Positions 1 to 56,894 of a stretch of DNA of 64,000 nucleotides are shown here, one piece after another. The first letter of the stretch is position 1. Each line of letters starts with the position of its first letter. A model generated the notes under the pieces. That model did no database searches and was not told the DNA's origin. It saw only the letters and a list, made by a program, of their open reading frames with translations. The stretch is from Selaginella moellendorffii. Taxonomy: Eukaryota; Plantae; Lycopodiophyta. Position numbers and translations under genes: made by a program. The stretch lies in assembly GCF_000143415.4 (NCBI RefSeq), contig NW_003314262.1, forward strand, positions 231,673-295,672. Reading direction: 5' to 3'.

Positions 1-43
1 CATATGAAATTTTTAAATGTGCCCTAATCTAAGATCGCTGGAT

Positions 44-16931: not shown

Positions 16932-16946
16932 ACTCCACCACCCATA
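16932..16946 (-). promoter_or_regulatory. Polypurine tract of A1 (TATGGGTGGTGGAGT)
   Basis: Abuts the 3' LTR; the same sequence occurs at 50698-50712 and in family B. Confidence 0.8.
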
Positions 16947-20967: not shown

Positions 20968-20979
20968 GCTCTGATACCA
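20968..20979 (-). promoter_or_regulatory. Primer-binding site for initiator tRNA-Met (TGGTATCAGAGC)
   Basis: 3 nt from the end of the 5' LTR; canonical tRNAiMet PBS. Confidence 0.9.
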
Positions 20980-20982
20980 AAT

Positions 20983-25377: not shown

Positions 25378-27270
25378 TGTAAGCCATAAATTTTTCCTTT
25401 CCAATTTGCCAGCTTACCTCGTCTATCTGACCAACACTACCTTGGCTTGTGCTAAGTTCCCTTGCCAAGGTTCCTGCCTATTGTACCAGCTCCTACTTGG
25501 TCCTACTTGGTTTTAACTACTCACTGCATGAGCAACGAAGCGTCAGCCATCCATCCACGGATTCCCAAATCTCTCCCAATCCCCCTCCCCGGGTTAGACT
25601 GGACTTAAGGTTCGACTACACTTCCCGTAGGCACAAGCAGCCAAGCACACCAAGCTTCTAGATTCCTAACATCCCTTGGTACAACAAGACTTGATCATGG
25701 GACCCTCTAAATCCCAAGCCTTGGGTGTAACACTTGCATCGGGACATCGGGGCGAAACACTGTGGCTTAACGGCCTAGTATGGGTACGTCTACCCCCCCC
25801 ACTTCCATCCCGAAGGGAAGGCCTAAGCCCCTAGGAAAGGTGAGGACCAATGAGCCACAAGGTACTCAAGTGGGGCACCACTCCACATGAGCTGGGAGCA
25901 CCGCAGTCGGTTTCCCTTTCGGGAGTGGGAGCTGCTCTTGAGCACTTTCTCGGGTGGCCCATTCGGCACCACCCGAGTCCATGCTCACTCCCACCCAAGG
26001 CCCTTCAGCCCTAGTCTCAACCTCAAGTCAGTTTGGAAGCACCACTGGAGAGTTCCTTCAAGACTGGTTCCTAGACCTCACTATCCTTACTATACTTTTG
26101 GAACCCCCTATAGCCCCCCTGGGAGACGCACATTTTGGGCTTTCACCCCTTGATTTGTATTAGTACTCAGACTCGGTCTTAGACTTGATCTTGGACTCGA
26201 TCTCGGACCCGACTTCGGACTCGGTCTCGGACTCGATCTCGGACCTGACTTCGGACTCGATCTCGGACCTGATCTCGGACTTGACTTCGGACTCGACCTT
26301 GGACTCGGTCTTGGACCCGATCTTGGATCTCGGACTCTGTCTCAAACTCGGTCTCCGAGTCGGCCTTGGATTCGATTCTGGACTCTATCTCGAACTCGGT
26401 CTCAGAGTTGGTCTTGGACTCGATCTCAGACTCGGTCCCATCTGATGAACTCTTTATCATTTCGGTCATGCTTTCGAGGATCCTTTAGCCTACGACACCT
26501 TGGGGAGTTGGTTCCTTACAACTCTACCACCCATAGAAGAAGTTTGATGCCTATATCGAACGTCTCTTTTAAAATCCTACAACTTGTTGACCATGTCTCT
26601 GAGGGCATCCCCCCACTTAGCGGTGTGCCTAAGTTAGCCTCCCCGGCCAAGAGCCCATGACAACGGAATATAGGTGTCCCTATACCCCTCACCTCACCAT
26701 GCCTTAGTATGGGGTTGGGACTTGAACCCAGCCTTGCTTTACTAGGGGGTTGGGACTCGAACCCAACCTCCATAGAATACGTCTATGGATTCGACATCCC
26801 CGCGGGGAGTCAGGCATAGTGCCCTACGCCTGGTCGACCTAGCTAACCCATGCTAATTAGCTTACTTTCGGCGTACCTTCGGGTCCCAACATATGCTATT
26901 GCTCAACTTCACAAATTGATACTTTAATTGAACTTTGCATAAGTACATAGAGTTTTGCCTTGCAGAAATTCCTCCACTAGATCTCGCGTGTTCGCTAGGT
27001 TCTCCTCCGATTCCCATGTTGCTTCGCACTGTGGAAATCCTTTCCACTTCACATGGAACTCTCTCACCTCGTGTCCTTGTCGCTTGCTCTTGCGCGCATT
27101 GAGGATGGCCTCGACTTCGTATTCCTCCTCCCCTTGGATAACCTCAGGTAAAGGTCTTACTTGGTCCTTGGTGAAGCGGATCCTCAAAGTACGGCTTGAG
27201 TAAGTTCACATGGAACACTGGGTGCATCTTTGCCATCTCTCAAGGAAGTTGGAGACGATAAGCCACTTTA
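25378..27270 (-). mobile_element. Element B1: truncated chromovirus (3' LTR 25378-26520, PPT, 3' UTR, chromodomain end of pol)
   Basis: LTR homologous to 29461-30565; chromodomain EYEVEAILNARK..EFHVKWKGFPQCEATWESEENL. Homology to B2 ends at ~27270. Confidence 0.9.
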
Positions 27271-29057: not shown

Positions 29058-30967
29058 CAATGACTATTTGAACCAATAGACTAATCTCTATAGTCTTGAT
29101 TAATCCACTTATAATCATGCCTAAGAAAGATCTACTAGTGTCGTGCTAAATAGCTATGGACCAACCTACTTGCCACTCATAGCAAACCCAAGAAAGGTTC
29201 CTTTCACCCACGGTACATAGAACAACTATAAGCTCTTGAATTTAGACTTCCTAGGAGGTCACCTAGCCCAGTACTATTCAAACCCAAGGATGCTTAACCC
29301 CAAATATCCCAAGCGATTGGAAAAGGGGGTGCACTCTTGTTCATGGGCCCTTTCCCTCTATATTTGAACCCCTATGGATCGTCTCTCAAGTCGTTCTCTT
29401 TGGTTGTTTACAACAACTCATAGAACCACTGATAGACTAACATTAATCCTGCCAACTTAATGTAAGCCACAAATTTTTCCTTTCCAATTTGCCAGCTTAC
29501 CTCGACTATCCGTCCAACTCTGCCTTGGCTTGTGCTAAGTTCCCTCGCCAAGGTTCTCGCCTATGGTACCAGCTCCTACTTGGTCCTACTTGGTTTCAGC
29601 TACTCACTGCATAAGCAACGGAGTGTTAGCCATCCATCTACGGATTCCCAAATCTCTCCCAATCCCCCTCCCCGGGTTAGACTGGACTTAAGGTTCAGCT
29701 ACACTCCCCGCAGGCACAAGCAGCCAAGCATACCAAGCCTCCAAATTCCTAACACCCCTAGGTACCACAAGACTTGATCATGGGACCCTCTAAATCCCAA
29801 GCCTTGGGTGCAGCACTTGCTTCGGGACGTCGGGGCGAAACACCGTGGCCTAATGCCCCGGTATGGGTACCTCTAACCCCCCACTTCCATCAAGTGGGGC
29901 ACCACTCCACCTGAGCCGGGAGCACCGCAGTCGGTTTCCCTTTCGGGAGTGGGAGCTGCTCTTGAGCACTTCCCTGGGTGGCCCCTCTGGCACCACCCAA
30001 GCCCATGCTCACTCCCACCCAAGGCCCCTCGGCCCCAATCTCAACCTCAAGTCAGTTTGGAAGCACCACTGGAGAGTTCTTTCAAGATTGGTTCCTGGAC
30101 CTCACTATCCCTACTATACTTTTGGAACCCCCTGCAGCCCCCCCCCCCCCCCTGGGAGACGCATGCTTTGGGCTTTCACCCCTTGACCCGGATTAATATT
30201 TGGACTTAGTCTCTGGCTCGATCTTGGACCCGATTTCGGATCCGACTTCGGATTCGGGTTCGGACTCGATCTCGGACTCGATCTTGGACCCGATCTCAGA
30301 CCCGACCTCGGACTCGACCTCGGACTCGGTCTCGGACCCGATTTCGGATCTCGGACTCCGTCTCGAACTCGGTCTCGAACTCGGACTCGAACTCGGTCCC
30401 CGAGTCGGTCTCGGACTCGATTCCGGACTCTATCTCGAACTCGGTCCTAGAGTCGGTCTTGGACTCAATCCTCGACTTGGTCCCATCCGATGAACTCTTT
30501 GTCATTTCGGTTACGCTTTTAGGGATCCTTTAGCCTATGACATCTCGGGGAGTCGGTTCCTTACAACTCCACCACCCATAGAAGAAGTTCGATGCCCACA
30601 TCGAACGTCTCTTTTCATCCTACGACTTGTTGACCATGTCTCCGGGGGCATCCCCCCACTTAGCGGTGTGCCTAAGTTAGCCTCCCCGGCCAAGAGCCCA
30701 TGACAACGGAATATAGGTGTCCCTATACTCCTCACCTCACCACGCCCTAGTATGGGGTCGAGACTTGAACCCAGCTTTGCTTTACTAGGGGGTTGGGACT
30801 CGAACCCAACCTCCGTAGAATACGTCTACGGATTCGACATCCCCGCGGGGAGTCGGGCGTAATGCCCTACGCCTGGTCGACCTATCCAACCCATGCTAAT
30901 TAGCTTACCTTTGGCGCGCCTTTGGGTCCCAACATATGCCACTTGCTCAACTTTGCAAATAGATATT

Positions 30968-33900
30968 TTAATTGAACTTTGTGTAAGTACATAGAGTTCT
31001 ACCTTGCAGAAATTCCTCCACTAGATCTCGCGTGTTCGCTAGGTTCTCCTTCGGTTCCCATGTTGCTTCGCAGTGTGGAAATCCTTTCCACTTCACATGG
31101 AACTCTCTCACCTCGCGTCCTTGTTGCTTGCTCTTGCGTGCATTGAGGATGGCCTTGATTTTGTATTCCTCTTCCCCTTGGATAACCTCAGGTAAAGGTC
31201 TCACTTGGTCCTTGTGAAGCGGATCCTCAAAGTACGGCTTGAGTAAGTTCACGTGGAACACTAGGTGCATCTTCCCCATCTCTCGAGGAAGTCAGAGACG
31301 GTAAGCCACTTTACCGATTCGTGCCTCAATCTCGTAAGGCCCCGTGAACCTGCTTAAGGAACTCAAGATTAATTCATTTATAGGAATACATGCATCTTTA
31401 CTTTTGGGTCAACTTTCGGCTGATCCCACTTGGTAGTCTAAGGTTCTTGGTGTTCAGCCACACCTTCTCCCCAACTTGGAACTCTACATCCCGACGCTTC
31501 TGGTTCGCGTATTTGGTTTGCCTTTGTTGAGCCCGTTCCAAGGAATCCCTCACTAGATTCCAAATACTGAGTCTTTCCGCTGTGAATGCCTCCACTGCGG
31601 GCAACTCTCCATGATATTCGGCCACGCCGAGTTCCACAGGACCTTCAATAGCTCGCCCATTGATGACTTCCCATGGACTCACCCCGATACTCGAATGTGG
31701 TGAGTTGTTATAACACATTTCCGCAAGTCCCAAATGACTTACCCAATCGGTCTGGTCTCCCGAGACATAGCATCGCAAATAATCCTCCAGCTGCCTATTC
31801 ACCCTTTCCGTTTGTCCTTCTGTCAAGAAGTGTTAGTGCCAACAACTTGACTTAATACCCCATACCTGTCTATGGGTGATAGGTTGTGCTGAATTTCAAC
31901 TTGGTGCGATACTGTTCTAGGAGAGTCCTCCAGAACCTACTGGTGAAGATCTTATCTCGATCTGAGATGATCTCTTCCGGTCTTCCCCGCACTCGAACCA
32001 CTTGTTCGAAGAATAGCTTCGCCACACCTTCCGCATCCACCTCCGTTGTGGTGGGTATGAAATGTGCCATTTTCGAAAATCGGTCCACCACCACGAATAT
32101 CGCATCAAACCCCTCGCTTGGGGGGAGTCCTGTGATAAAGTCCATCGTAAGACATTTCCACGGACGATCTGGAATTGGGATGCTTTGCAACAAGCCCCCA
32201 CTAGCCTTAGTCACGGCTTTTACCTACTGACATGTTGGACATGTCTTTACATAGTCTTGGATGTCCTTAGCCATATCTGGCCAATGGTACTTCCTCTTGA
32301 GTAAGCCCATCGTCTTGGGCACTCTGCCGTGTCCCGCAAGAGGTCCGTCATGACACTCTTCTAAGGCCACCTTCCTTAGTTCCCCTTCTGGAACATACAC
32401 CCTCGTTTGCTTGTAATAGATGAGTCCGTTGCGTTCCGCATAGCCCGTTTTCTTTTCCGTTGGCAGCTCACCTCTCTGGTGAGCTTCCCGTGCCTCTAGA
32501 TTCCTCAGCAACACTTCTTGTGCTAGACCATCGTTCTCATATGCTGTCCGCACATCGTTCCAGAAGGTTGCTGTTGCGCTGGATATTGCCAACCTCAAGC
32601 TCGCTTTTCGACTTAACGCATCTGCCACAATGTTGCTCTTCCCAGGCTTGTACAGAATCTCGCAATCAAACTCGGCCAAGGCATTGGCCCACCAACCTTG
32701 TTTCCCTCTCAGGTCGGGCTGTGACAAGAAGTGTTTTGTTGCCACATTGTCCGTGTAAACCTTGAAGTGTCTCCCAAGGTAGTGTCGCCACTCCTTGAGT
32801 GCCTTGACCACCGCAAACAATTCCTTCTCGTGGGCAGGCCACTTCCTTTGAGCCTTGTCCAACTTCTTCAAGAAGAACGCTACCGGATGGTTGTCTTGCT
32901 TCAAAACTGCGCCCAACGCAAAGTCCGAAGCATCCGTTTCTACCTCAAAGTCCTTACCAAAGTCTGGTAATGCCAATACGGGAGCCTTCCTCAACTTCCC
33001 TTTGAGGTGGACGAATGCCGCCTCGCATTCTGCTGTCCACACCATCTTCCCTTTTCCTGTTTGGTCCGTTAAGGGCAGGGTTACTCTCAAATAGTGTCTG
33101 ATAAACTTTCGATAGTAGTTGCATAGCCCCAGGAATGCCCTCAACTCATGTACATTCGATGGTCGCTCCCATTCCTGGATCGTTTGGACCTTCTCCGGGT
33201 CCACCTTGAGCCCGTCCTGGCCCACCACATACTCGAGAAACTTTACCTCTTGTTGAGCAAAGTCACATTTTCTCTCTTTAGCATACAGTTTGTGTTCCCT
33301 TAATTTCTCAAACACCTTCGCCAAGTGTTCGGCATGCTCCTGTAGCATCTCGCTATAGATCAGGATGTCGTCGATATAGACGACCACGAAGTGATCCAGA
33401 TAGGGTATAAAGATGTGGTTCATTAGCGCCGAAAATGTTGCCGGCGCATTATATAGCCCGAAGGGCATCACTAGAAACTCAAAGCTCCCATACCTCGTTC
33501 GACAGGTTGTCTTCTTGACATCTTCCTCGGCTACCCTGATCTGGTAGTATCCTGACCTTAGGTCAATCCTCGAGAAGTATTTTGCCTTTCCCAACCTATC
33601 AAACAGGTCCTCAATCCTTGGCAAAGGGTACTTGTTCTTCTTTGTATACTTGTTGAGCAACTGGTAGTCTATGCACATGCGCATAGATCCATCTTTCTTT
33701 TTCACAAATAACACCGGCGCCCCATACGGCGACTTGCTCAACCTAACATACCCTTTGTCCACCAACTCCTCTAGTTGGCACTTGAGCTCCTTGAGTTCTT
33801 TTTCGTTCAAACGATAAGGGGGACGAACCACCACCTCAGCACCCTCGACCAGCTCAATCTTATGTTCTATCGGTCGTGCGGGGGGCAACCCCGCCAGTAA

Positions 33901-34584
33901 CTCGGTATTCTGGAATTGGTCCAACACCCATTGGATCACTAAAGGTACTTCTTCCGTTCCTGTCTTTTTGTCACTCTTCACCGAGAGTAAGCACAAAAAG
34001 GCTGCCTTAGTTCCTTTAGTGAGTTGTCCTCTCGTGGACACCAGGTTTAAGCAGGATTCTTTGGCCTTGCTTTGCCCTACCTTTAGATCTTGGGCCTCCA
34101 CCCTAGATCTTCTTCCTTGGGCATTCGCTAGTACCACAAGGTTTCTACCTTGTCCATGCAGGGCTACCACGAACCGATTAAACCAGTCCATTCCGAAGAT
34201 CACATCAAATCCCGCCATGTCCAACACGGTGAAGTCCATGTCCACTTTCCAAGTCCCTACTTTGACTCTCGCTTGTCGAAGTACCTCATCGGTGCTTTGG
34301 CTACCTTGAACAAACTCTATAGTCCTGGGTTCGCCTAGCCGCTGCACCGTTAGTCCGGCTTGCCGGACTATGTCTGCAGCCACAAAATTATCCGAAGCAC
34401 CCGTGTCAATAAGGATCTTAACAAATCTACCTCCGAGCTTCCCCCGGAGGGCTAGTAGATGTCGCGAGCGACTCTCTACCAAAGTTGCTCGTGTAATGAG
34501 TAACTTTGAGTTAGGGACTGGATCACATACCTCAGTTTGGACTTCACTCGATTTGATGGCCATATTGGCTCCGGGTAGGGACAT
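30968..34584 (-). pseudogene. pol: pol of B2 (protease, RT, RNase H, integrase, chromodomain) with two GT-AG introns (31820-31865, 31350-31401) and three point stops
   Basis: [29 protein letters not shown] finger, MDF..ISDRD..QTER, GPY, chromodomain. Stops at 32224, 31870 and 31292 are each one C>T change from CAG or CGA. Confidence 0.9.
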
Positions 34585-35040
34585 TCCATCGAAAAGTGTC
34601 CCGCTTCACCGCAGTTGTAGCATACGTTATTTCCCACGCTGCTATACGACTTGACCTTCTTATCCATGGGTTTGTCTCTTTTCGCTTGACTCCCCCACGT
34701 ACTCGCTCGCTGGCCACCGGATTTGCCTTTCCGGAACCCCGAGGACTCATTTTTAGAGAAACTCCTCTTGAATTTCCCTCTACTAAACGTTCCCCTTGGT
34801 TTGGCCCCTTTGCTAAACGTGGATCCCGACCCCGTCGTGTTCCCCTTTCGCAGATTATCGTTGAAATGCACCTTGATGGCCGCATCCAACGCTTCCTTGT
34901 AGTTGGTCGGGTTCCACCGCATCACTTCGCCGCGAGCCCAGGTTTGCAAACCTGATATGAAGGCATGGAACGCATCCATATCCCCCATGTCCGTGACAAG
35001 TATCCTCTTTGCCATAAACCCATTCACATACTCCTGAATG
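34476..35040 (-). pseudogene. gag: C-terminal part of B2 gag with CCHC zinc knuckle
   Basis: IQEYVNGF..FISGLQ..EV..NPTNYKEALDAA and [14 protein letters not shown]; the N-terminus was lost by the deletion into the LTR. Confidence 0.85.
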
Positions 35041-37942
35041 AGCAACAGAGTGTTAGCCATCCATCTACGGATTCCCAAATCTCTCCCAATCCCCCTCCCC
35101 GGGTTAGACTGGACTTAAGGTTCGGCTACACTCCCCGTAGGCACAAGCAGCCAAGCACACCAAGCCTCCAGATTCCTAACACCCCTAGGTACCACAAGAC
35201 TTGATCATGGGACCCTCTAAATCCCAAGCCTTGGGTGCAGCACTTGCTTCGGGACGTCGGGGCGAAACACCGTGGCCTAATGGCCCGGTATGGGTACGTC
35301 TAACCCCCCACTTCCATCCCGAAGGGAAGGCCCAAGCCCCTAGGAAGGGCGAGGACCAATGAGCCACAAGGTACTCAAGTGGGGCACCGCTCCACCTGAG
35401 CCGGGAGCACCGCAGTTGGTTTCCCTTTCGGGAGTGGGAGCTGCTCTTGAGCACTTCCCTGGGTGGCCCCTCCGGCACCACCCAAGCCCATGCTCACTCC
35501 TACCCAAGGCCCCTCGGCCCCAGTCTCAACCTCAAGTCAGTTTGGAAGCACCACTGGAGAGTTCCTTCAAGATTGGTTCCTGGACCTCACTATCCCTACT
35601 ATACTTTTGGAACCCCCTGCAGCCCCCCCCCCCCCCCCCTGGGAGACGCACGCTTTGGGCTTTCACCCCTTGACCCGTATTAGTATTTGGACTTAGTCTC
35701 TGGCTCGATCTCGGACCCGATTTCGGATCCGACTTCGGATTCGGTCTCGGACTCGATCTCGGACTCGATCTCGGACCCGATCTCGGACCCGATCTCGGAC
35801 CCGACCTCGGACTCGACCTCAGACTCGGTCTCGGACCCGATTTCGGATCTCGGACTCCGTCTCGAACTCGGTCTCGAATTCGGACTTGAACTCGGTCCCC
35901 GAGTCGGTCTCGGACTCGATTCCAGACTCTATCTCGAACTCGGTCCTAGAGTCGGTCTTGGACTCGATCCTCGACTTGGTCCCATCCGATGAACTCTTTG
36001 TCATTTCGGTCAAGCTTTTGGGGATCCTTTAGCCTACGACATCTTGGGGAGTCGGTTCCTTACACTCAAAGCGTAACTTTGAATTGCTAATGTGCCTAAT
36101 TCACAAGCCCAAGCACAAACTCATGCAAACAAAACAACTCAATCCCTTTTATGATCCCAAGAGCAAGCTCATATAATACAGTACAAAAAAGGTAACTAAA
36201 ATCCATATCCAAGGAACAGATGTGTAGCGCACCTGAATTTGGAGCCGAACTCCAAGCCTGTTGCACTACGAAATGAGGGTTCGGTACAATCCCACAAGCA
36301 CCAGCTCCCTGTATCTAGCACCTGCATGCAAAATGGTGTCAGACGGAGTCTAGCATAATTTTGGCATACCGGTGGCCTAATGCGAGGAGGAGGGTACCCC
36401 ACCGACTAGAGCAGCGTGGAGCTTGGGTTTAGACCCAAGCCGGACGTAGAACAAGGAGCGACACAGCCCAACGGGAGCCAAACTAATGTCTCAAGTGGTC
36501 GGACATGCATTCCAACCATTATCCCTACTATACATTTGGAACCCCCCATAGCCCCGCCCCGCCCCGCCCCCCCCCCCCCGCCCGAGGAACACACGCTTTG
36601 GGCTTTCACCCCAAGCCTCCCTTAGTACTAGCAGTTAGTCTCTGGGACAAGCTCGAAATTTACTAAATATGGAATGGTGCTAGATTGTGAACACCATTGT
36701 GTTCAGGCTGACCTCTACATTCTATAGATATGCCAAATGAGCAAATCTAGACACTTTCCATAAATAGCATTTGGGACCGAAATGAGACTAACACAAAGGG
36801 CATGATAGCGAGGGTGTCTGGTAGACATGGTAAGTTATCATCCGGCGATATTGAAGGACTAGTCTCAATACATAAGGGTTCTTGTCACTAGCCAGTGCAA
36901 GACATAACGAGACGGGAACTCCTTACCGGGCTAAGTATGCTTAGCTAATAGCACGTAGGAATTCCGTCCTTATACTTGTCCACTCTAAGTACACTCAAAA
37001 TGTCCAGTTAACTCCACTAGCACAAGAGGGGCTACTAAAGGGATCCAATTGTACCGATCTTCTGCCGTCATGGCAATAAAGAAAGAGTGTCCGTAAGGAT
37101 TGGCCGACAAGTATCTTTCGATACCCAAAGTCACATTCGCGACACTCTCCCCCCCTTGGGGAAGATCGACGTCCTCGTCGATGCATACCCAAGTCTAGCA
37201 AACCGTCAAGGAAACAACTCTGAAAATTAACGGAAAGCACACTATGTGGGAAACACACCAACTTAAATGAGTTATGGAACGACCTCTCCTCTACATCCAA
37301 AGATGTTAAGACTCAGACACCCTCTGGCTGTCACCGACAAGGAAATGACTAATGGAGTTAGCCACCCTTGTTGCTTCGAGTACCACTCAGCGTACAAAGG
37401 AATTATACATCCCTACCCACAGGGACATAGGGAGAAGGCCAAAGGCCCAACTTCCCCTGAGCAAGAAATCAACCTCGTCGGGAAGATTTAGACAACTATT
37501 ATAAACTAGCAAATGAAGTTGTTTACACGACCACGCCCCTTTTGCAAAAATGAGTCATCGAGAGAGAGGCGAGGACTTGTGATCAGTTTATAATAATTAT
37601 CCCCATGGTTATGGATTGGACCCATGCATCAAAGTGCCGAAGTCAGTCTGCCAAAACTGACCCAAATTCTAACAAACGAGAGAGACGACACTTGGATTTA
37701 CAATGCTACCATCTTTGCCCAACCATGACAGAACAAAGCAGACAAACTAGAAGATTCCGTGAAAGGATATGTATTAGAATAGTAAAAAAATCAAAAGACC
37801 TTGCCGATATATTTAGCCCTAACTCTAACCTAAAACACCTATTTTACAAGTTGGTTCAATAGAACAATGTGAGGCAGCTAACGTGCCAATAGAAATATAT
37901 TACTTTATTAATTTGCAAGATTTATTACAAGATTTACAAAAG

Positions 37943-42892: not shown

Positions 42893-45369
42893 TCCAACTA
42901 ATCCTACACAAGTCGCTTTGGATCTACTAGAAAAGTGTGAGACGTAAAATCCCTAGGCCCCAAAGTGGAGTCGAAAGGGTGCCACGTGGTAGTGGCCGAA
43001 GCAAAAGCCAAACGAGCGTAACAAGTTTGGACTAAAAAGCTTCGACTTGAAAGGTCAAGAGCGGGAGTGGAACTCCCAACGGAGTGCTCAAGGAACGAGC
43101 ATGAAGCGGACAATAAGCAAGGCTCTGAAAAGTGACCCAAAAGGACCAACACATCACACGTGGAGGAGTCCGAGATGGACCAAGACGGAGTCCGAGATGG
43201 AGTCCGAGATAGACCGAGATGGAGTCCAAGACGGAGTCCGAGAATGGAGTCCGAGATGGACCCGAGATGGAATCCGAGATGGAGTCCGAGAAGGACCCAA
43301 GTTGGAGTCCGAGATGGAGTCCGAGATGGACCGAGACAAAGTCTGAGATGGAGTTTGAGATGGACCGAGACGGAGTCCGAGATGGAGTCCGAGATGGACC
43401 AAGATGGAGTCCGAGATGGACCCGAGATGGAGTTTGAGATGGACCGAGATAGAGTCCGAGATGGAGTCCGAGATGGACCCGAGATGGAATCTGAGATGAA
43501 GTCCGAGAAGGACCCGAGATGGAGTCCGAGGTCGAGACCGAGACTGGGATGGAGACTGAGACCGAGACCAAGACCGGGACCGAGACCGAGACCGAGACCG
43601 AGACCGGGACCGAGACCGAGACCGAGACTGGGACCGAGACCGAGCTCAAGCCCGAGTTCGAGTCCGAGTCCGAGTCCGAGTCTGAGTCCGATTCCGAGTC
43701 CAAGTCCGAGTCCGAGTCCGAGTCTGAGAGGGTGAAAGCCCAAAGCGTTCGTCTCCCAAACCCTGGGGGGTTTGGTGAGCTCCAAAAGTATAGTAAGGGG
43801 GAGGACTGCAGTGGAGCCAGTTTGGCCAGGAAAGGACAGTTTGGCCTAGGAAGGCCAGACCCAGTGTTGGGTGATGAACTGACCACTAGGAAGTCCAAGA
43901 CTAGAGTGAACACGGACCGACAAGCGGGGTAGCTTGGTGAAATGTTCAAGAGCCAGCTCTAGTTCCCCTGGGAGATTGACTGGCCGATGCTCCCAGTCCA
44001 AGTGCGGGTGGCACTACCTACTTGGATACCTGGTGTGGCTCAATGGAACCTCGCTCTAAGCCCATGGCTAGAGCACCTAAAGGTGGAAGGTGGGGAGAAT
44101 ACCCACGGGGCTCACATAGGGCCACGGTGTTCCGAAATGTTGTCCCAAAGTCCCAAATGGGTGTAAGGAGGAGGAGTAGTCCTCTAGTGTAGTGATTACG
44201 GATACGGTCACATGGTGAGGAAGTCCCAGAAGACAATGGGACTTAGTGGCCAGGGCAGTGTTGGTGAATATGGCCATGGACGAAAAAGGGACTTGGCAGG
44301 AACTGACAAAGGGATGTTGGGGAAGGCTATTCCCCATGTCTATAGGCATCCTAAGGATGCTAAGGAGTGGATCTGGGATAACCACATGTGGACGGACGGC
44401 CCAGTCTTTGAGAGACGAGACTGTGATACTGGTGGTGTTGGACCACCGGTGCTACCAAGGTGAATGGGCATGGCCTTAGCGTAATGGGCTAGTATGTCGG
44501 TGGTACCTTGGGGTGTCGGTCATGGGACCAGACACGTGGAGCACTTGGACCAAGTGCAAAGGTTGAGTAGCATGGATGCCATTCTCGGGGCCAACAAGCC
44601 CCAAGTCCTGAATGGGACTTATGGAGGTTGTGAATGAGACTCCTCTAAGTGGTCGGAGGTGCGGTTAAGTGACTAAAGTAGAATGGAAAAATTAGTCGCT
44701 TACAATTTGGTATCGGAGCTGTTCCTTAGTCCGACTTTTATTGGTGCTCAAGTATATCACCATTGATATTGGCATCGGAAGGTCCTAGGAGGGGGCCTAT
44801 CCTTGAAGAGTAGCATGTCGAGAGGACATAGCTCTCCACTCAAGTTCATGCGTGAACTTAGGCGTGATATGGTGGATAGAAAAGGGGCCAGTAAGGGAAC
44901 GACTTTGGTGTGAGACACAAAATCCCTAAGCCGCAAAGTGGAGTCGGAAGGGTGCCACGTGGTAGTGGCCGAAGCGAAAGCCAAACAAGCGTAGCACGTT
45001 TGGACTAAAAGCTCCGACTTGAGAGGTCAAGAGCGGGAGTGGAACTCCCAACAAAGTGCTCAAGGAGCGAGCACGAAGCAAACAATAAGCAAGGCTCCAA
45101 AAAGGGACCCAAAAAGGACCAACGCATGACACGTGGAAGTGTCCGAGATGGACCCAAAGTGGAGTCTGAGATGGACCCGAGATGGAGTCCGAGATGGACT
45201 CGAGATGGAGTCCGAGATGAAGTCCGAGGTGGACCCGAGGTGGAGTCCGAGATGGACCGAGACGGAGTCCGAGATGGAGTCCGAGATGGAGTCTGAGATG
45301 GACCGAGACGGAGTCCGAGATGGAGTCCGAGATGGAGTCTGAGATGGAGTCCAAGATGGAGTCCGAGAT

Positions 45370-45469
45370 NNNNNNNNNNNNNNNNNNNNNNNNNNNNNNN
45401 NNNNNNNNNNNNNNNNNNNNNNNNNNNNNNNNNNNNNNNNNNNNNNNNNNNNNNNNNNNNNNNNNNNNN
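45370..45469. other. Assembly gap inside the LTR tandem array
   Basis: 100 N. Confidence 1.
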
Positions 45470-48400
45470 GAGACCGAGACCGAGATCGGGACCGAGACTG
45501 AGACCGAGGCCGAGGCCGAGACCGAGCCCGAGCCCGAGTCCGAGTCCGAGTCTGAGTCCGAGTCCGAGTCCGAGTCCGAGTCCGAGTCCGAGTCCGAGTC
45601 CGAGTTCGAGTCTGAGAGGGTGAAAGCCCAAAGCGTTCGTCTCCCAGACCCTGGGGGGTTTGGTGAGCTCCAAAAGTATAGTAAGGGGGAGGACTGTAGT
45701 GGAGCCAGTTTGGCCAGGAAAGGCCAGTTTGGCCCAGGAAGGCCAGACCCAGTGTTGGGTGATGAACTGACCACTGGGAAGTCCAAGACTAGAGTGAATA
45801 CGGACCGACAAGCGGGGTAGCTTGGTGAAGTGTTCAAGAGCAGGCTCTAGTTCCCCCGGGAGATCGACTGGCCGATGATCCCAGTCCAAGTGTGGGTGGC
45901 ACTACCTACTTGGATACCAGGCGTGGCTCAACGGAACCTCGCTCTAAGCCCATGGCTAGAGCACCTAAAGGCGATAGGTGGGGAGAGTACCCAGGTGGCT
46001 CGCGTAAGGCCACGGTGTTCTGAAATGTCGTCCCAAAGACCCAGACTGTGGAAAGGAAGAGGAGCAGTCCTCTGGGGTAGTGACCAAGGACACAGTCGTG
46101 TGGTGAGGAAGTCCCAGAGGACCGTGGGACTTAGTGGTCGGGCCTGTGGGCCTCGATCCAGTGGCAGTGTTGTCAAACACGGCCAGGGGCAGAAAGGGAC
46201 TTGGTAGGAACTGACAAAGGGACTTTGGGGAAGGTGACTCCCCAGGTTTGTGGGCATCCTAAGGATGCTAAGGAGTGGATCTAGGATGACTCCTCGTGGA
46301 CAGATGGCCCAGTCTTGGAGAGACGGGATGGTGATGCAAGTGGTATTGGACCACTAGTGCAGCAAAGGTGAATGGGCATGGCCTTAGCGTAACGGGCCGA
46401 GATGTCAGTGGTACCTTTGGGTGTCGGTCATGGGATCGGACATGTGGAGCACTTGGACCAAGTGCAAAGGTTGAGTGGCATGGATGCCATTCTCGGGGCT
46501 AGCAAGCCCCAAGTCTTGAATGGGACTTATGGAGGTTGTGAATGAGACTCCTCCAAGTGGTCGGAGGTGTGGTTAAGTGACTAAAGTAGAATGGAAAAAT
46601 TAGTCGCTTACAACTTGGTATCAGAGCTGTTCCTTAGTCCGACTTTTATTGGTGCTCAAGTATATCACCATTGATGTTGGCATTGGAAGGTCCTAGGAGG
46701 GGGCCTGTCCTTGAGGAGTAGCATGTCGACAGGACATGGCTCTCCACTCGAGTTCATGCATGAACTTGGGCGCGATGTGGTGGATAGAAAAGGGGCCAGT
46801 AAGGGAACGACTTTGGGATCTGGGGAACAGTATAAGGTTTCCTCAAAGAGCTGCGGATGTGATCCAGATGAACGTTTGATGCAGCAAACGGGCTAACGTA
46901 GTTGTGGTAAACAACTATAATTGGGATCACGGGAAAGATGTAGACTCCAAAATAATAAAGGAGTCACAAGATTACCCTCATATAGTTGAGGCCGGTGCTC
47001 ATAACTTTGAGACCGGAATTGATGACCATGGGAGGTCAAATATAGGAGAGGACACAAGTCCTCGAAATGGTAGCTGAGGTTGCCCTTGATAAATGCTGGA
47101 ACAACCCAAAGAGTTGGGGATGTACTTAGAGGATGAGTTGGTATTCTCATCACATGGACAAGTGGTCCTAAGAGGCAAAAGGTTGCCCCAAGAGAACAAA
47201 TCAAGTGTCGGAGTAACACTTGCAAAGATGGTCCTTGTGAGTAGGACCTGAATACAAGAAGTTGTATTTAAGTGAGCTAGCACCTCAAAGGTAGGACCTC
47301 ATGGGTCGTCAGATGACAAAGTCCAAAAAGCTGGATGACTCCAATAGAGTCAAGGAATAATCCTAAAGGATTGATGGAAGCATTTGGACTGAGGTGTGTG
47401 GTACCCCACGAAGGATGGGGGGGATCATAGGATCCAAGGATGAGAACAGAGGGTATCTCATCGATGGCAAAATGTGCCATGCTAAAGTCGTGGGAAGGGT
47501 GTTCCCAAAAGAAAACAACTTTGAAACAAAGTTGTGTGTGACCTCTATAGTGCAGTGCTAACGGATGGTTGGCATGAGAAAGAGTGGTATTGGTCTTGGC
47601 AAAGACTTAGACACAAAGAAGAAGTGTCATAGAGGTAGGCTCGTGAAGCCGATAGTGTGGAGACACCAAATGTGCCAAGGTGTGATACCTTGAGGCTATG
47701 TTGGTGAGTTCATGAGAACCCCCTGCCAAAGGAATCCCAATGGAAATGGGAATGGCATAGCCTAAGTTGCAGAGCATGCAATTGGAGTGTGGTGACCCAG
47801 ATAATGATGGAGGTGTGGAAGCACCAGCAATGAGTTGTAGGACTTGACAACTATGAGGCAACTAAGCAAGAGGTGCAAAATAATTGGTTAAACGGGTAGA
47901 AAGTAACTACCCAAGCCTTCTTAATGGCATAAGGAAGTTGGATATACCCTTACGGGGGATAAGTTGCTTATGTTGCGATATAGTAAGTCAATGTCATGAA
48001 AGGAAATACTCATTGTCAAGGAAGCCATCATTGGGACACCCGAACACTCTAGAACACCAGGAGGTGGTGTTTGATGTCGCGAGGGCAATAGATAAGGCCC
48101 AAGGGACAAAGTCCCTAGCGAATGATGGATAGAAGGTGCTATCCAAATGCCCAAGGTGGCGGAGACAGGAGAAGACTGTCTACTCGAATTGGACAAAGCC
48201 AAAAATGGAATTTTGGCAAGGCTAGCAATGGGCATGTAAAGGCCCATAAGCAACAACGTAATCTCGGTGTGTGGGATTATAGGGTGAGCATACCTGGATT
48301 GAGGAACCACTCCCTAGGCTATCGGGTAGGTTCATCCCTAAGAATACTTGCTAAGGAATGATAGAAAGTGCAAAGCTATCCTCCTGGTCTGGAGGAGAAT

Positions 48401-49089
48401 GACCAAAGGAAATGTGTGAAGCCAAAAGCAAGAAGTAAAGGGGTAGAACCGAACCATAGGAATCGAAGGGCATAACCAAGGTTGGTTATGCCAGCTGGGA
48501 GTGGAGAATCAAGTGGGGGCTCGAGGGTGTTGCCACTAGCAACCGTGATGCCATGGAGAGTCTAAAATATGGAATTGTCCATGTTAGACTATATGGTAAT
48601 TGGAAAGCTTGCAAAAAGGGAGGCCTTAGCAAGCTAAGGGACAGAGTTCCTTCAAGGTTTCCAAAGACGATTTTAGGTAGCTTAGTACCTAGAAAGGCCA
48701 AGTGTAAATGGTTCATGAAACGCGTAAAATCAGAGTGGCGCAGCAGAAGCGTGGTCTTGAAGCTGGCCATGAGGCAATGCTATCAAGGTTAGGGAAGTAG
48801 TTCCCGAGTGTTCAAAGAGAGGGCTTTGAATGAAAGTCGATGATCAAGGGCTTTCACGCTTGTGCAGGAACCATGTTACAGTGGTCGGAGGGCTTGCCAA
48901 AGCGAGATTGGCAAGTCAGGGGAACAAATACCCTAGTTGAAGGTGATAACTTCAAAAGGGGTGGGCCATGAGGCCAAGCATGGAGGAGTCCATGCATGAT
49001 CACAGACTTGTCAAGTGTGAGGACTTGGCAGTGTGGAGGAACTAGGTTCCTAAGCTGTGATCTGTAGCGCGCTTTGAGTATAAGTTGGT

Positions 49090-49510
49090 GCACCGGCGTG
49101 GGGAGTCACGCCAGGCATCCTGGGTGATGCCGTCCGTAGATGCATATACGGAGGTTGGGTTCGAGTCCCGACCCTCTAGTGCTTGGGTTCGAGTCCCAAA
49201 TCACTAGGGTGTGGTGATGGTTTGGAATATGAGGACACTCATATTTCGGTGGTCATGGACTCTCAGTGAGGAGACTGGTTTGGGCACACCGCCAAGCGAG
49301 GGATGCCTCGGAGTCGTGATGCACGGTTAGATTGCTTAGAGTGAAAGCTCGGTATATCTAACTTGAACACTTTGGTGCAAAAGGCACCAAGGACATGGTG
49401 AATGAGATGGGGACACCCAGTCTCAGTTGCTATGGATCCTTGGCCGGAAGGGCTGGCTTGGGTGCACCGCCAAGCGTGGGGGATGCCCCCGGGGTCATAG
49501 TCAACAACTT
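49090..49510 (+). other. Conserved structured RNA module of families A and B (other copies at 18100-18520 -, 26583-26838 -, 30626-30882 -, 55857-56257 +)
   Basis: Series of hairpins with conserved stems, variable loops and compensatory changes between copies. Confidence 0.7.
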
Positions 49511-52500
49511 AGAAGGGTCCGGAAGACCTAGTTCCTATTGGTAGACCTATTAAGGGGTCAAGATGAGATCACTAGGTGATCTTGTGGCTAAACAAGGACA
49601 AGGTCTTTGTTTGGGTTAAGGAATATGATTCCTAGTTCAAAGTGTTGATTTGAACTATTGATAAAGGTGTGGCTTGGTCAAGGTGACTAAGTGGGAAGGA
49701 CACCTAAGGGAAATGAACTACTACAATATAATGGTATTATGAGTTCAAGAAAATAGTCTCCAGAGATAAGCCCATGGGTGGGTCACAAGGTTGGGCTAGG
49801 AAGAGATCCTAGAACAGTAGGGAGACTTATTAGGGGTGAACACCCTAGTCTGGGCAAAGCAAATCCTTTGCTATGAAACCAAAAAAATACCTCAAGGAAG
49901 GAGGTAATGATCCTATGTTGCTTGGTGCAACAACCTAAGGATAGGAGCAAAAGACGAGTGCCCAAGATAGGGCTGTGGAATCCATTGGAAAGAATCCAAG
50001 TGGCAAAGTTAGCCAAGGAACACTAATGTGTTTGATGCTAACGGATTGCGGAAAAAAGAAGTGGACTTCCAAGGATGGATTCCCAAGTGCTCCAATTTGG
50101 CAAAGGAAAGGCTCCAAGTGAGGGAGCAATTAAGTAGCCAAAAGATAGGGCCATGGACAGCCCTAGCACAAATAATGATAAATGGAACGTAGTGCCAAGG
50201 GCGGCACAAAACAGAAAAGAGGATGATGGTGCCCTCAAGTAAAGAACTTCCTAGGATAGGGAAGTGGAGTTGCACAAAATGTGCAAGGCAAGATGTCGGA
50301 GACACCTAGGAAATTGACTCCAAAAAGTCAAGAGTAAACGTTCCAAAGTGCAAAGGTAGATCAATGGAATCTGTGACTACTCAAGAATGAGTAGTGGAAT
50401 TGAGTTAGAGAGGGTGTCTCTAACGGGTTTAGCGAGAACTGAACTAATAAAAAGGAGCAAACCACCACAGGTGGTCAAGTGAGCCTCTAAGTTGGAGAGA
50501 CTATCCTCCTTAAAGGATGGGCAAGGCATGGTGAGCCTTTGGTGTCGAACCATTGACGAATATGGAGAAGGCATGGTGAGCCTTCAATGTCAAACCATTG
50601 ACAAATATTGGCTAGGGGCCAAGGATGGAAATGGTAACACATGTGGGTGTTACTTTATAAAATGGTTTACCGTTTGATGAGGACATCGAACTTCGTCTAT
50701 GGGTGGTGGAGTTGTGAGACACAAAATCCCTAGGCCCCAAAGTGGAGCCGGAAGGGTGCCACGTGGTAGTGGCCGAAGCGAAAGCCAAACAAGCGTAGCA
50801 CGTTTGGACTAAAAGCTCCGACTTGAGAGGTCAAGAGCAGGAGTGGAACTCCCAACAAAGTGCTCAAGGAGCGAGCACGAAGCGAACAATAAGCAAGGCT
50901 CCAAAAAGGGACCCAAAAAGGACCAACGCATGACACGTGGAAGTGTCTGAGATGGACCCGAGGTGGAGTCCGAGATGGACCCGAGATGGAGTCCGAGATG
51001 GACCCGAGATGGAGTCCGAGATGAAGTCTGAGGTGGACCGAGATGGAGTCCAAGGTGGACCCGAGATGGAGTCCAAGATGGACCGAGATGGAGTCCGAGA
51101 TGGAGTCTGAGATGGACCGAGACGGAGTCCAAGATGGAGTCCGAGATGGAGTCCGAGGTGGACCCGAGGTGGAGTCCGAGATGGACCGAGACGGAGTCCG
51201 AGATGGAGTCCGAGATGGAGTCCGAGAAGGACCCGAGATGGAGTCCGAGGTCGAGACCGAGACCGGGACCGAGATTGAGACTGGGACCGAGACCGGGACC
51301 GAGACCGAGACCGAGACCGGGATCGAGGCCGGGACCGAGACCAAGACCGAGCCCAAGGCTGAGACCGAGCCCGAGCCCGAGTCCGAGTCCGAGTCCGAGT
51401 CCGAGTCCGAGTCTGAGTCCGAGTCCGAGTCCGAGTCCGAGTCCGAGTCCGAGTCCGAGTCCGAGTCCGAGTCCGAGTTCGAGTCTAAGAGGGTGAAAGC
51501 CCAAAGCATTCATCTCCCAGACCCTGGGGGGTTTGGTGAGCTCCAAAAGTATAGTAAGGGGGAGGATTGCAGTGGAGCCAGTTTGGCCCAGGAAGGCCAG
51601 ACCCAGTGTTGGGTGATGAACTGACCACTGGGAAGTCCAAGACTAGAGTGAATACGGACCGACAAGCGGGGTAGCTTGGTGAAGTGTTCAAGAGCCGGCT
51701 CTAGTTCCCCCGGGAGATCGACTGGCCGATGCTCCCAGTCCAAGTGTGGGTGGCATTACCTACTTGGATACCAGGCGTGGCTCAACGGAACCTCGCTCTA
51801 AGCCCATGGCTAGAGCACCTAAAGGCGATAGGTGGGGAGAGTACCCAGGTGGCTCGCGTAAGGCCACGGTGTTCTGAAATGTTGTCCCAAAAGCCCAGAC
51901 TGTGGAAAGGAAGAGGAGCAGTCCTCTGGGGTAGTGACCAAGGACACAGTCGTGTGGTGAGGAAGTCCCAGAGGACCGTGGGACTTAGTGGTCGGGCCTG
52001 TGGGCCTCGATCCAGTGGCAGTGTTGTCAAACACGGCTAGGGGCAGAAAGGGACTTGGTAGGAACTGACAAAGGGACTTTGGGGAAGGCGACTCCCCAGG
52101 TCTGTGGGCATCCTAAGGATGCTAAGGAGTGGATCTAGGATGACTCCTCGTGGACAGATGGCCCAGTCTTGGAGAGACGGGATGGTGATGCAAGTGGTAT
52201 TGGACCACTAGTGCAGCAAAGGTGAATGGGCATGGCCTTAGTGTAACGGGCCGAGATGTCAGTGGTACCTTTGGGTGTTGGTCATGGGATCGGACACGTG
52301 GAGCACTTGGACCAAGTGCAAAGGTTGAGTGGCATGGATGCCATTCTCGGGGCTAGCAAGCCCCAAGTCCTGAATGGGACTTATGGAGGTTGTGAATGAG
52401 ACTCCTCCAAGTGGTCGGAGGTGTGGTTAAGTGACTAAAGTAGAATGGAAAAGTTAGTCGCTTACATTTGGGATCTTGGGAATAGTATAAGGGTTTCCTC

Positions 52501-53387
52501 AGAGAGCTAAGGATGTGATCCAAATGAGCATTTGACGCAGCAAACGGGCTAATGTAGTTGTGTTAAACAACTATAATTGGGATCACGGGAAAGATGCAGA
52601 CTCTAAAACAATAAAGGAGTCACAAGATTACCCTTGTATAGTTGAGGCTAGTACTCATAAATTTGAGACCAGAATTAGTGACCGTGGGAGGTCAAATACA
52701 GAAAAGGACACGAGTCTTTGAAATGGTAGTCGGGGCTACCTCTAATAAATGCTGGAACAACCCCAAGAGTTGGGGGTGTACTTAAAGATGAGTTGCTATT
52801 CTCATCATATGGACAAGTAGTCATAAGGGGCAAAGGTTAACCCCAAGAAAATCATTAAGTGTCGGAGTAACAAAAAAAATTGTCCTTGTAAGTAGGACAT
52901 GAATACAAGAAATTGTATTCCAGCAAGTTGGCACCTCAAAGACTAAGACTTCGCAGGTTGTTAGATTAGTAAAGTCCAAAATGCTAGATGACTCAATTGG
53001 AGTCAGGGAGTGGTCCTAAGGGATTGGTTGAAGCATTTGGATTGAGGTGTATAGTGCCCCATGAGGTATGGGGAGGATCATAAGATCCAAGTATGAGAAC
53101 AGTAAGTATCTCATTAATGGCAGAATGTGCCATACTAAAGTTGTGGGAAAGATGTTCCCAGAAGAAAACAACTTTAGCCCAGAGTTGGGTGCAAATGCTA
53201 TGGTGCGGTGCTAACAGATAGTTAGCATGAGGAACAACTATATTGGTCTTGGCAAAGACCTAGACACTAATAAGAAGTGTCATAAAGATAGGCTCACAGG
53301 GCCGATGTAGAGACACCAAACATGTCAAGGTGTGATACCTTGAGGTTATGTTGGTAGGTTTATAAGAACCCCTTGCCAAGGGAATCC

Positions 53388-54514
53388 TGTAAGCCACAAA
53401 TTTTTCCTTTCCAATTTGCCAGCTTACCTCGTCTATCTGACCAACTTTGCTTTGGCTTGTGATAAATTCCCTCGCCAAGGTTCTCGCCTATTGTACCAGC
53501 TCCTACTTGGTCCTACTTGATTTCAGCTACTCACTACATGAGCAACGAAGTGTTAGCCATCCATCTACGGATTCCCAAATCTCTCCCAATCCCCCTCCCC
53601 AGGTTAGACTAGACTTAAGATTCAGCTACACTCCCCGCAGGCACAAGCAGCCAAGCACACCAAGCCTCCAGATTCCTAACACCCCTTGGTACCACAAGAC
53701 TTGATCATGGGACCCTCTAAATCCCAAGCCTTGGGTGCAGCACTTGCTTGGGGACGTCAGGGCGAAACACCGTGTCCTAACGGCCCAGTATGGGTACCTT
53801 TACCCCCCCACTTCCATCCCGAAGGGAAGGCCCAAGCCCCTAGGAAGGGCGAGGACCAATGAGGCACAAGGTACTCAAGTGGGGCACCACTCCACATGAG
53901 CCGGGAGCACCGCAGTCGGTTTCCCTTTCGGGAGTGGGAGCTGCTCTTGAGCACTTCCCTGGGTGGCCCCTCCGGCACCACCCAAGCCCATGCTCACTCC
54001 CACCCAAGGCCCCTCGGCCCCAGTCTCAACCTCAAGTCGGTTTGGAAGCCCCACTGGAGAGTTCCTTCAAGCTTCAAGACTGGTTCCTAGACCTCACTAT
54101 CCCTACTATACTTTTGGAACCCCCTACAGCCCCCCCCCCTGGGAGACACACGCTTTGGGCTTTCACCCCTTGAGCTGTATTAGTATGTGGACTTAGTCTC
54201 AGAATCGATCTCGGACTTGATCTCGGTCCCGACTTCGGACTCGGTCTTGGACTCGATCTCGGACCCAATCTCGGACTCGACCTCAGACTCGGTCTCGGAC
54301 CTGATTTGGATCTCAGACTCCGTCTCGAACTCAGTCTCGATCTCGGTCTCCGATTCGGCCTCGGCTCGATCCCGGACTCTATCTCGAACTCGGTCTCAAA
54401 GTCGGTCTTGGACTCAATCTTCGACTCAGTCCCATCCGATGAACTCTTTGTCATTTCGGTCAAGCTTTCGGGGATCCTTTAGCCTATGACATCTCAGGGA
54501 GTCGGTTCCTTACA
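53388..54514 (-). mobile_element. Solo LTR of family B (B3) inside A2
   Basis: TG..CA ends, perfect TSD AATCC, homologous to the B1 and B2 LTRs. Confidence 0.93.
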
Positions 54515-56894
54515 AATCCTAATTGAAATGGGAATGGCATAGCCTAAGCTGGAAGGCATGTGATAGAGTGTGGTGACCAAAACAATAATGGAGGTGTGGA
54601 AGCATCAACAATGAGTTGTAGGACTTGACAACTATGAGGCAACTAAGCAAAAGGTGCAAGATAATTGGTTAAACAGGTAGAAGATGGCTACCCAAGACTT
54701 CTTAATGGAATAAGGAAGTTAAATATACCCTTACTGGGGATAAATTGCTTATGTTGTGATATAGTGAGTCAATGTTGTAAAAGGAAATGCTCATTGTCAA
54801 GGAGACCATCATTGGGACACCTAAACACTCTGAAACACTAGGAGGTGGTGTTTAGTGTCGCAAAGGCAATAGATAAGGCCCAAGGGACTAAGTCCCTAGC
54901 GAATGATGAATAGAAGGTGCTATCCAAATGTCTAAGGTTGCAGAGACGGGAGAAGATTGTCTACCCAAATTAGACAAAGCCAAAAATGGAATTTTAGCAA
55001 AGCTAGTGAAGGCCCATGAGCAGCAACATTAATCCCGGCATGTGGGATTATAAAGTGAGCATACCTGAATTGAGGAACCACTCCCTAGGCTATCAGGTAG
55101 GTTCATCCCTAAGAATACTTGCTAAGGCATGATAGAAAGTGCAAAGTTATCCTCCTAGTCTAGAGGAGAATGACTGAAGGAAAGGTGTGAAGTTAAAAAG
55201 CAAGTAGTAAGGGGATAGAACCGAACCATAGGAATTGAAGGGTATAACCAAGGCTGGTTATGCCAGCTAGGAGTGGAGAATCAAGTGGGGGCTCGAGGGT
55301 GTTGTTGCTAGCAACCGTAATGTCATAGAGAGTCTAAAATATGGAATTGTCCATGTTAGACTATATGGCAACTAGAAAGCTTGCGAAAAAGGAGGCCTTA
55401 GCAAGCTAAGGGACAGAGTTCCTTCAAAGTTCCCAAAGACAATTCTAGGTAGCTTAGTACCTAGAAAGCCAAGTGTAAATGGTTCCTAGAACGCGTGAAA
55501 TTAGAGTGGCGCAGCAGAAGCGTGGTCTTGAAGCTGGCCATGAGGCGAAGCTATCAAGGTTGGGGAAGTGGTTCCCGAGTGTTCAAAGAGAGGGCTTTGA
55601 ACGAAAGTCAATGGTTAAGGACTTTCACGCTTATGCATGAACCATGTTACGGTGGCCAGATGACTTGCTAAGTGAGATTGGCAAGTCAAGGGGACAAATC
55701 CCCTAGTTGAAGGTGCTAACTTCAAAAGGGGTGGCCCATGGGGCCGAGCATGGAGGAGTCCATGCATGATCACAAACTTGTTAAGTAAGAGGGACTTAGC
55801 AGTGCGGAGGAACTAGGTTCCTAAGCTGTAATCTATAGCGCACTTTAACTATAAGTTGGTGCACTAATGTGAGGAGTCACGCTAGGCATCTTGGATGATG
55901 CCTTCCGTAGATGCATATACGAAAGTTGGGTTCGAGTCCCGACCCTTTAGTGCTTGGGTTCGAGTCCCAAATCACTAGTGCGTAATGATGGTTTAGAATA
56001 TGAGGACACTTATATTTCGGTGGTCATGGACTCTTAATGAGGAGATTGGCTTGGGCATACCGCCAAGCAGGGGATGCTCCGGAGTCGTGATGCATAGTTA
56101 GATTGCTTAGAGTGAAAGCTCGGCATATCTAACTTGAACACTTTGGTGCAAAGGGCACCAAGGATGTAGTAAATGAGATGGGGACACCCAAGTCTCAATT
56201 GCTATGGATCCTTGGCCGGAAGGGGTAACTTGGGCGCACCGCTAAGTGTGGGGGATGGATTTGTGAAATCTAGATCTCCAACAAAGTCAGCATCAACATA
56301 TCTACTAAAGTGTTCCCAACTTGGATTGGGAGACAATGCCCATAGCAAGCACTATGTATGGATGTGTATAAACCATCAAGTATAGTACGTTGCTAATAGC
56401 TTGTCAATACAGAACAATAATTATCTTAGAATAGTTCTTTGGTGGGGACGTGGACAAATCTTCTCTGCCAAGACGGAATCAATCAAGCACTACATGATCA
56501 AGTGTTTTTTTATTACAGTTAATGCTAACGTATTGTTTGGCAATTGGAAGCGCCAAAATGTGATTCAAACGAAAAGAACACGATTTCTCGACTCTCACTC
56601 TCTCTCTCTCTCAACTCTCTCGACTCTCTCTACAAACGAAGTGTGGTGCCCATGTTCTCCTTGGTCTTGCCAGCGTTGTTTCCACCAGGATGGCCAGCCT
56701 CTAGGCAGCCGAAGCAGCCAGCCCTCGAACACGGCTCACCAGGATTGTCCCTGGAGGACTGAGTGAAAGCTCCAGGTCCAGCTCCGGACTGTGAGCTAGT
56801 GTCCCTGGAGGACACAGCAAAAGCTCCAGCTCCGGGCTGGGGACGCTTTCAGCTGCCGGATCCCGTGGTCCATCCTGTGCTGCCGTCGTCAAAG

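Follow-up and report, generated by a model that had tools for sequence, protein, structure and literature searches.

The window analyzed in this study is a 64-kb stretch of Selaginella moellendorffii DNA, land-plant-type sequence that is packed with nested LTR retrotransposons. Host genes are represented by DAO (an FAD-dependent oxidoreductase; 17-1291, plus strand) and by a DUF604/Fringe-like gene (6824-8604, plus strand) that runs across two overlapping frames and is possibly frameshifted or spliced. The retrotransposons include a coding family (B), a non-coding family (A) and a third element (C), a related chromovirus (RT identity 45%). Nesting is seen within 42936-56257, where the A3 copy holds an insertion of the A2 copy and an insertion of a solo B LTR (53388-54514, with a 5-bp target-site duplication), and A3 is itself inserted upstream of the gag of C. 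Related tandem arrays with 6/12-bp repeats, each several hundred bases long, occur in the LTRs of A and B (e.g. 50945-51480, 30210-30466 and 54197-54420) and produce long open frames, rich in Ser/Asp, that are spurious. In DNA contigs A and B are both abundant, with 20,805 contigs matching 1201 nt of A and 3,302 matching 291 nt of B, counts that give no ranking between the families; X17 contigs on B numbered 0. RNA reads from sets of 9.2 million each matched A in 1, 1 and 0 cases and B in 4 and 0 cases, numbers that have no control gene beside them and so are no measure of silence.

Family B is represented by an element at 29461-36064 on the minus strand, which is its sense strand. Its broken gag-pol (30968-35114, minus strand) encodes a Gag CCHC knuckle, protease, RT, RNase H, integrase and a chromodomain, in PR-RT-RH-INT order with the chromodomain at the C-terminus, and B is therefore a Ty3/Gypsy chromovirus. 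The family has LTRs of about 1.1 kb with TG...CA ends, a PPT and, at the solo LTR 53388-54514, a target-site duplication. The element is deleted for the end of the 5' LTR, the PBS, the leader and the 5' part of gag, and the LTR passes straight into the C-terminal frame of gag. The chromodomain shows Y, W and F at the aromatic-cage positions. Chromodomains with a Y/W/F cage occur in non-seed plants only, according to one report (PMC6317226). The elements are likely Galadriel-like plant chromoviruses, a placement to which only these cage residues and the PBS of A point.

In family A, the LTRs are about 1.75 kb long, and a PBS, a PPT and a 4.1-kb hairpin-rich interior lie between them. The A2 copy (44909-52469, plus strand) is non-autonomous and LARD-like, with LTRs at 44909-46613 and 50713-52469 that are 98% identical and a PBS at about 46616-46627 (plus strand), which is presumably of the tRNA-iMet type; the A1 copy occupies 15130-22788. 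No retroelement protein relic was found in the A interior, and none of the 11 longest open frames (at least 80 aa, of 27 listed) matched Pfam. The features that define a LARD, namely a long LTR element with PBS and PPT, a non-coding interior and a structured internal domain, were all found in A. Hairpins extend well beyond the domain that A has in common with B, and 33 of 67 windows across 46617-50712 fold with z <= -2 on the sense strand. Family A also carries a sense tRNA-iMet-like stretch at 48729-48756 (plus strand), 18850-18877 (minus strand) and about 55500-55527 (plus strand) that is absent from B. This stretch sits about 310 nt upstream of the domain, has no Rfam tRNA match, and is presumably the first ~28 nt of plant tRNA-iMet. 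Its first 19 nt match the wheat small RNA tae-N11 (PMC5411081) at 18 of 19 positions.

A domain shared by a coding and a non-coding family

When the interior of A was compared with B, whose 5' leader is deleted so that any 5' signal common to both lies outside the comparison, only three segments matched at E<1e-10: the domain described here (72% identical), the second unit within it (75%) and a 42-nt PPT segment (90%), which in A2 is the PPT-proximal hairpin and polypurine tract at 50671-50712 (plus strand). The two families also share LTR termini and LTR tandem repeats, and together with the PPT segment this suggests that the B lineage is likely the helper of family A. In B, a single domain lies with the PPT in the 3' UTR (30566-30920, minus strand), between the pol stop and the PPT; the first palindrome begins 48 nt past the pol stop and the unit ends 64 nt short of the 3' LTR. 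B has a second copy of this domain, which is truncated, at 26521-26900 (minus strand). In A, the domain is found 1.2 kb upstream of the LTR. Its other A copies are at 18101-18541 (minus strand) in A1 and, decayed and truncated at its 3' end, at 55837-56260 (plus strand) in A3. The motif is on the sense strand in both families. A first-pass annotation that drew attention to the motif did not place it in a 3' UTR or note that a non-coding family retains it, and the fact that it is among the few parts of its coding relative that A has retained is the main clue to function. Since A has no use for translation signals, the parts that it has kept are likely there for export, dimerization, packaging or reverse transcription.

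In A2 (all coordinates on the plus strand), the domain begins with two 8-nt palindromes that are candidate dimerization sites, AGCGCGCT (49066-49073; B2 counterpart GGCGCGCC, 30913-30920) and GGTGCACC (49087-49094; B counterpart GGTCGACC, 30875-30882 and 26832-26839). These are followed by hairpins H1-H3 (49095-49152), which are common to A and B; H1 has a compensatory G-C/A-U pair, and a GGAG loop is present in A. Next come T1 (49153-49173), a hairpin whose 7-bp stem is capped by UUCGAGU, a loop that resembles the tRNA T-loop and also matches a Pol III B-box, and P0 (49174-49209), an 8-bp covarying stem that encloses T2 (49183-49199), a second T-arm-like hairpin. A conserved single-stranded UGGUGA (49212-49217) leads to the GACA-tetraloop hairpin (49223-49248) and then to a perfect four-helix junction (49249-49324), in which the P1/P2 stem closes hairpins a (49264-49277), b (49278-49297, loop GCACACCG) and c (49298-49309, GAUG loop). 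After an A-specific spacer hairpin (49326-49362) comes unit 2 (49370-49505), a duplicate that repeats P0 through P1 and leaves the T-arms out, with P0 at 49370-49392, UGGUGA at 49396-49401, a GACA hairpin and a junction at 49426-49505; its loop b carries the palindrome GUGCAC. The junction leaves no nucleotide unpaired in B and A unit 1 and has one bulge in A unit 2. The earlier description of a closing stem around three hairpins was correct and its motif is real, but the unit is larger than was described, since it starts earlier with P0, and about 150 nt of additional upstream sequence belong to the shared domain. In A only, an 8-nt complementarity between loop b of unit 2 (49462-49469) and palindrome 2 (49086-49093) allows an alternative long-range fold that is the MFE choice in longer windows. 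A search for a loop-b kiss with the LTR gave just 6-nt matches.

The T-arm-like hairpins could be the working part of the domain and the rest a scaffold, either as a tRNA-elbow mimic for tRNA-binding proteins or, as DNA, as B-boxes bound by TFIIIC in a chromatin boundary or Pol III promoter. Precedents are the T-loop mimic in box B of brome mosaic virus, for which PMC10424219 gave no confirmation, and the B-box boundaries of fission yeast; two B-box/T-loop matches are present in each of A1, A2, B1 and B2, and the T1 loops are predicted to be 0.88-0.96 unpaired. However, unit 2 was duplicated without the T-arms, and the upstream block covaries only weakly (a single double change among 25 pairs, with H2 not counted, a result reached in 395-1868 of 20,000 simulations). 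Neither a tRNA cloverleaf nor, in both families, the combination of A-box, B-box and terminator was found that would mark a tRNA, a tRNA-derived SINE or a Pol III type 2 gene; B has no A-box at a fitting distance and a T4 terminator common to both families is absent. This explanation is therefore considered quite improbable. A cloverleaf made of H1, H2, H3 and T1 was rejected as well, as it has no acceptor stem and ARAGORN returned 0 tRNAs.

A covariance model, trained on seven of the eight units that it recovered, was run over the window, and the next match reached only 13.7 bits. The units lie at 26585-26688 and 30628-30731 in B (minus strand), 49224-49325 and 49402-49506 in A2 (plus strand), 18282-18383 and 18101-18205 in A1 (minus strand), and 55995-56096 and, truncated, 56174-56292 in A3 (plus strand). 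This bears out the claim that the motif is single in B and tandem in A, and every sequence quoted in the first-pass annotation was located where it had been reported. Matches of the model at 48975-49066 and in the corresponding A copies were weak, at 14 bits or less, and were not accepted. The GACA loop is present in all eight units, and no variant of at least 6% was seen at this loop among the variants listed for B contigs. A loop-only pattern matched 6 places in the window and none in 100 shuffles. Chromovirus C is without the motif. In viral, metagenome and prokaryotic collections, which are poor in plant DNA so that absence from them says nothing on other plants, the loop pattern matched 16 viral and 73 metagenome loci, of which 0 of 89 had both stems, retroelement proteins or a covariance-model score; a tandem T-loop pattern had no viral match, an RT search gave no viral locus, and a tighter pattern found one prokaryotic-genome locus, in a Planctomycete MAG, that was taken as likely chance. 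The domain has no match in Rfam at the gathering score or at a meaningful E-value. The fold is apparently undescribed, as none like it was found among listings of the open literature.

Support for an RNA fold

The folding z-score of the domain is -6.75 in A and -4.56 in B. Across 40 core pairs, compared among three independent lineages of one genome in helices that were picked with all copies in view, B2 differs from A unit 1 by 9 double-compensatory and 5 single-consistent changes with 2 pairs broken, and from A unit 2 by 8 double-compensatory and 4 single-consistent changes with 1 broken; between the two A units there are 9 double-compensatory and 5 single-consistent changes and 1 break. Random placement of the same number of changes gave 1.6-3.7 doubles and 8.5-13 breaks, and the observed values were matched in 0 of 20,000 simulations in each case. 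In a 29-pair test, which leaves out P0 and helix c (the latter misaligned), 97.5% of cells were paired and 10 of the 29 pairs had changed on both sides, a result seen in 0 of 500 shuffles, with slid controls at 30-43%. The measure of further pair types in the same test was not above shuffles (492 of 500). The true covariation that had been claimed for the GACA hairpin holds against both simulations and shuffles. Sense RNA folds 15-18 kcal/mol better than antisense, compared with 1-4 kcal/mol under DNA parameters, and each unit has 6-7 G-U pairs; this strand asymmetry and the G-U pairs favor RNA over DNA folding. Together, these data support the domain as a covarying, predicted RNA fold on the sense strand of the element.

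A structure of this kind could be generic, without a specific partner, if it were an ancestral 3' UTR kept by descent or as an aid to reverse transcription near the PPT. The hairpin-rich windows across the A interior fit this explanation, as does the blocky conservation inside A: the domain is 94% identical between A1 and A2, which are young copies (LTR identity 98-99%), and its flanks are 90% and 83% identical, which speaks for the packaging role discussed below, but other A blocks, such as 47417-48016, equal the domain in conservation (94-95%). Against it, loops and linkers are nearly invariant while stems swap pairs in three lineages, and the domain in A now lies 1.2 kb away from the PPT, having moved there, and its duplication took in the entire unit together with P0. 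A generic structure is considered improbable on these grounds.

The first-pass annotation also noted that a conserved loop CACC is complementary to an upstream TGGTG. The pairing of UGGUG with CACCG of loop b (49287-49291) can form in 6 of 7 complete units, the exception being the decayed unit 1 of A3, and P0 hides the local rival partner of UGGUG, which is predicted to be 0.93-1.0 unpaired in the ensemble. A local YACYA:UGGUG hairpin, tried as a rival to the pseudoknot, also pairs in 6 of 7 units and was rejected because it loses to P0 in the ensemble. However, both strands of the UGGUG:CACCG pairing are invariant and the duplex is worth only about -5 kcal/mol, so covariation does not support it. 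The pseudoknot is a feasible but unsupported candidate, and of the compact fold proposed earlier it is the conserved, covarying sense-strand RNA fold that stands.

The fold is compact and covarying, its loops are invariant, a pseudoknot is possible, and the units are in tandem in A, as in retrozymes; these features could point to a new self-cleaving ribozyme or to an exoribonuclease-resistant RNA that yields a 3' subgenomic or circular RNA. The first-pass annotation had found no match to a known ribozyme, and this was borne out: no Rfam ribozyme or xrRNA family matched even at E<=10, and no hammerhead, twister, hairpin or HDV core was found by motif comparison. An xrRNA is marked by a ring-forming pseudoknot and XRN1 resistance, and the candidate pseudoknot here does not covary. 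In a coding element, cleavage upstream of the PPT would sever the template, leaving the genomic RNA without its 3' R region. No piled read ends were seen either, though 4 or fewer reads are no real test. Catalysis or exoribonuclease resistance is thus considered very improbable.

A possible role in dimerization and packaging

The domain is very probably a cis-acting genomic-RNA domain of an LTR retrotransposon. Its most likely role, which is held tentatively and at somewhat less than an even chance, is that of a dimerization and packaging signal of the genomic RNA. This role is favored because two palindromes have been kept through changes and because of parallels with the HIV-1 DIS and MuLV psi. 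Both palindromes are at homologous places in A and B and are palindromic despite changes (AGCGCGCT/GGCGCGCC and GGTGCACC/GGTCGACC), with cores GCGCGC and GUGCAC that are also HIV-1 DIS palindromes (PMC5874298). In a post hoc test, the simulated chance was 0.003-0.04 that both palindromes survive and 0.0004-0.001 that both survive changed. It should be noted that 8-nt palindromes occur in A at chance density (16 in 4.1 kb), that palindrome 1 has lost its symmetry in B1 and A3 and lines up in only 2 of 4 pairwise alignments, and that palindrome 2 is broken in A3 and predicted to be mostly paired (unpaired 0.01-0.30). The sequence of palindrome 2 is also not the same in A as in B, which would make A-B heterodimers weaker (-10 compared with -17/-18 kcal/mol, predicted).

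In the proposed mechanism, pairing between two RNA genomes would start at the two GC-rich palindromes, and the CCHC nucleocapsid of a B-type Gag would bind the G-rich loops (GACA, GAUG, GGRRA-like and GGAG) that the four-helix junction exposes. The UGGUG/CACCG contact and the T-loops may organize the tertiary fold. Family A would be mobilized in trans with the domain as its packaging signal, and the second unit in A might raise avidity for the Gag of the helper. The 3' location of the domain, opposite to that of retroviral psi near the 5' end, counts against the packaging reading (psi position as described in PMC3856414). Mutations in the ASLV 3' UTR that impair packaging are listed among the references of the same source (PMC3856414), and export and packaging can therefore share one site.

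The domain could instead be a nuclear export or stability element for unspliced genomic RNA that recruits host export factors, like the mouse MusD MTE, the IAP RTE and the MPMV CTE. The MTE, as described in PMC4588558, has the same place past pol and beside the 3' LTR, a similar size (about 400 nt compared with about 300-440 nt here) and several stem-loops with a possible long-range contact. The non-coding 7-kb RNA of A would need such a signal too, and its duplication in A could add export strength, with coupling to packaging also possible. However, export leaves the two compensatorily kept palindromes unexplained, no Rfam match was found, whichever of the MTE, RTE and CTE models Rfam holds, and the related chromovirus C is without the domain. 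Export is thus the main rival, though a rather unlikely one, and dimerization and packaging is preferred as the role of the domain.

A fuller version of the dimerization and packaging reading would make the domain a structurally defined signal at the 3' end and not in the 5' leader, with a gammaretrovirus-like psi layout (two DIS palindromes and GAC-tetraloop hairpins) reached independently. To this it would have added mimics of tRNA T-arms and a perfect four-way junction closed by a pseudoknot, and a parasite without genes would have duplicated it so as to win Gag from its helper; as a whole, this version is unlikely. RNA export of plant LTR retrotransposons is without direct study according to a 2025 review (PMC12786077). 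More broadly, the export, pairing and packaging of plant LTR-retrotransposon RNAs and the signal by which LARDs hijack a helper are largely undefined. With the helper/parasite pair described here, what the two must share internally comes down to a single domain, about 300-440 nt long, whose fold is supported by covariation, and its specific mutable features make dimerization, Gag binding and export testable in vitro or by reporter.

Comparison with known systems

The elements share with Galadriel-like plant chromoviruses a Y/W/F-cage chromodomain (B) and a tRNA-Met-type PBS (A), and differ in that the best public RT relative across most of the query is 60% identical. Tcn1-type self-priming uses no tRNA PBS, whereas A has a PBS of the tRNA-Met type; that of B is deleted in the window. 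Retrozymes and small self-cleaving ribozymes are similar in placing a tandem RNA motif in a non-autonomous LTR element, but the motif described here is internal and not in the LTR, is also present in coding family B and is without a known catalytic core. The MTE, RTE and CTE are similar in their position next to the 3' LTR, their size, their stem-loops and a possible tertiary contact, as described in two sources (PMC4588558, PMC12786077); fold, loops and host element, here a plant Ty3/Gypsy element, are different, and the domain has no match in Rfam.

The closest parallel in layout is MuLV psi, in which two palindromic stem-loops (SL-A and SL-B) are followed by GACG-tetraloop hairpins (SL-C and SL-D) and the partner is a CCHC nucleocapsid, as described in PMC5874298. 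The domain has the same order of two palindromes and then GAC-tetraloop hairpins, but it lies 3' of pol and not in the 5' leader, and it has T-arm mimics and a four-helix junction in addition. Further, GACG loops kiss via C-G, which the GACA loops cannot do, as they lack a self-complementary CG. Sequence homology is not claimed. Family A fits the definition of a LARD (PMC7215508), and it resembles LARDs such as Sukkula, and Cassandra TRIMs, in that its LTR elements are long and non-coding, have structured interiors and are presumably mobilized in trans. A 5S rRNA cassette of the Cassandra kind was not found in A (no Rfam match). The difference from both groups is that here a discrete module is common to the non-coding family and to a coding chromovirus.
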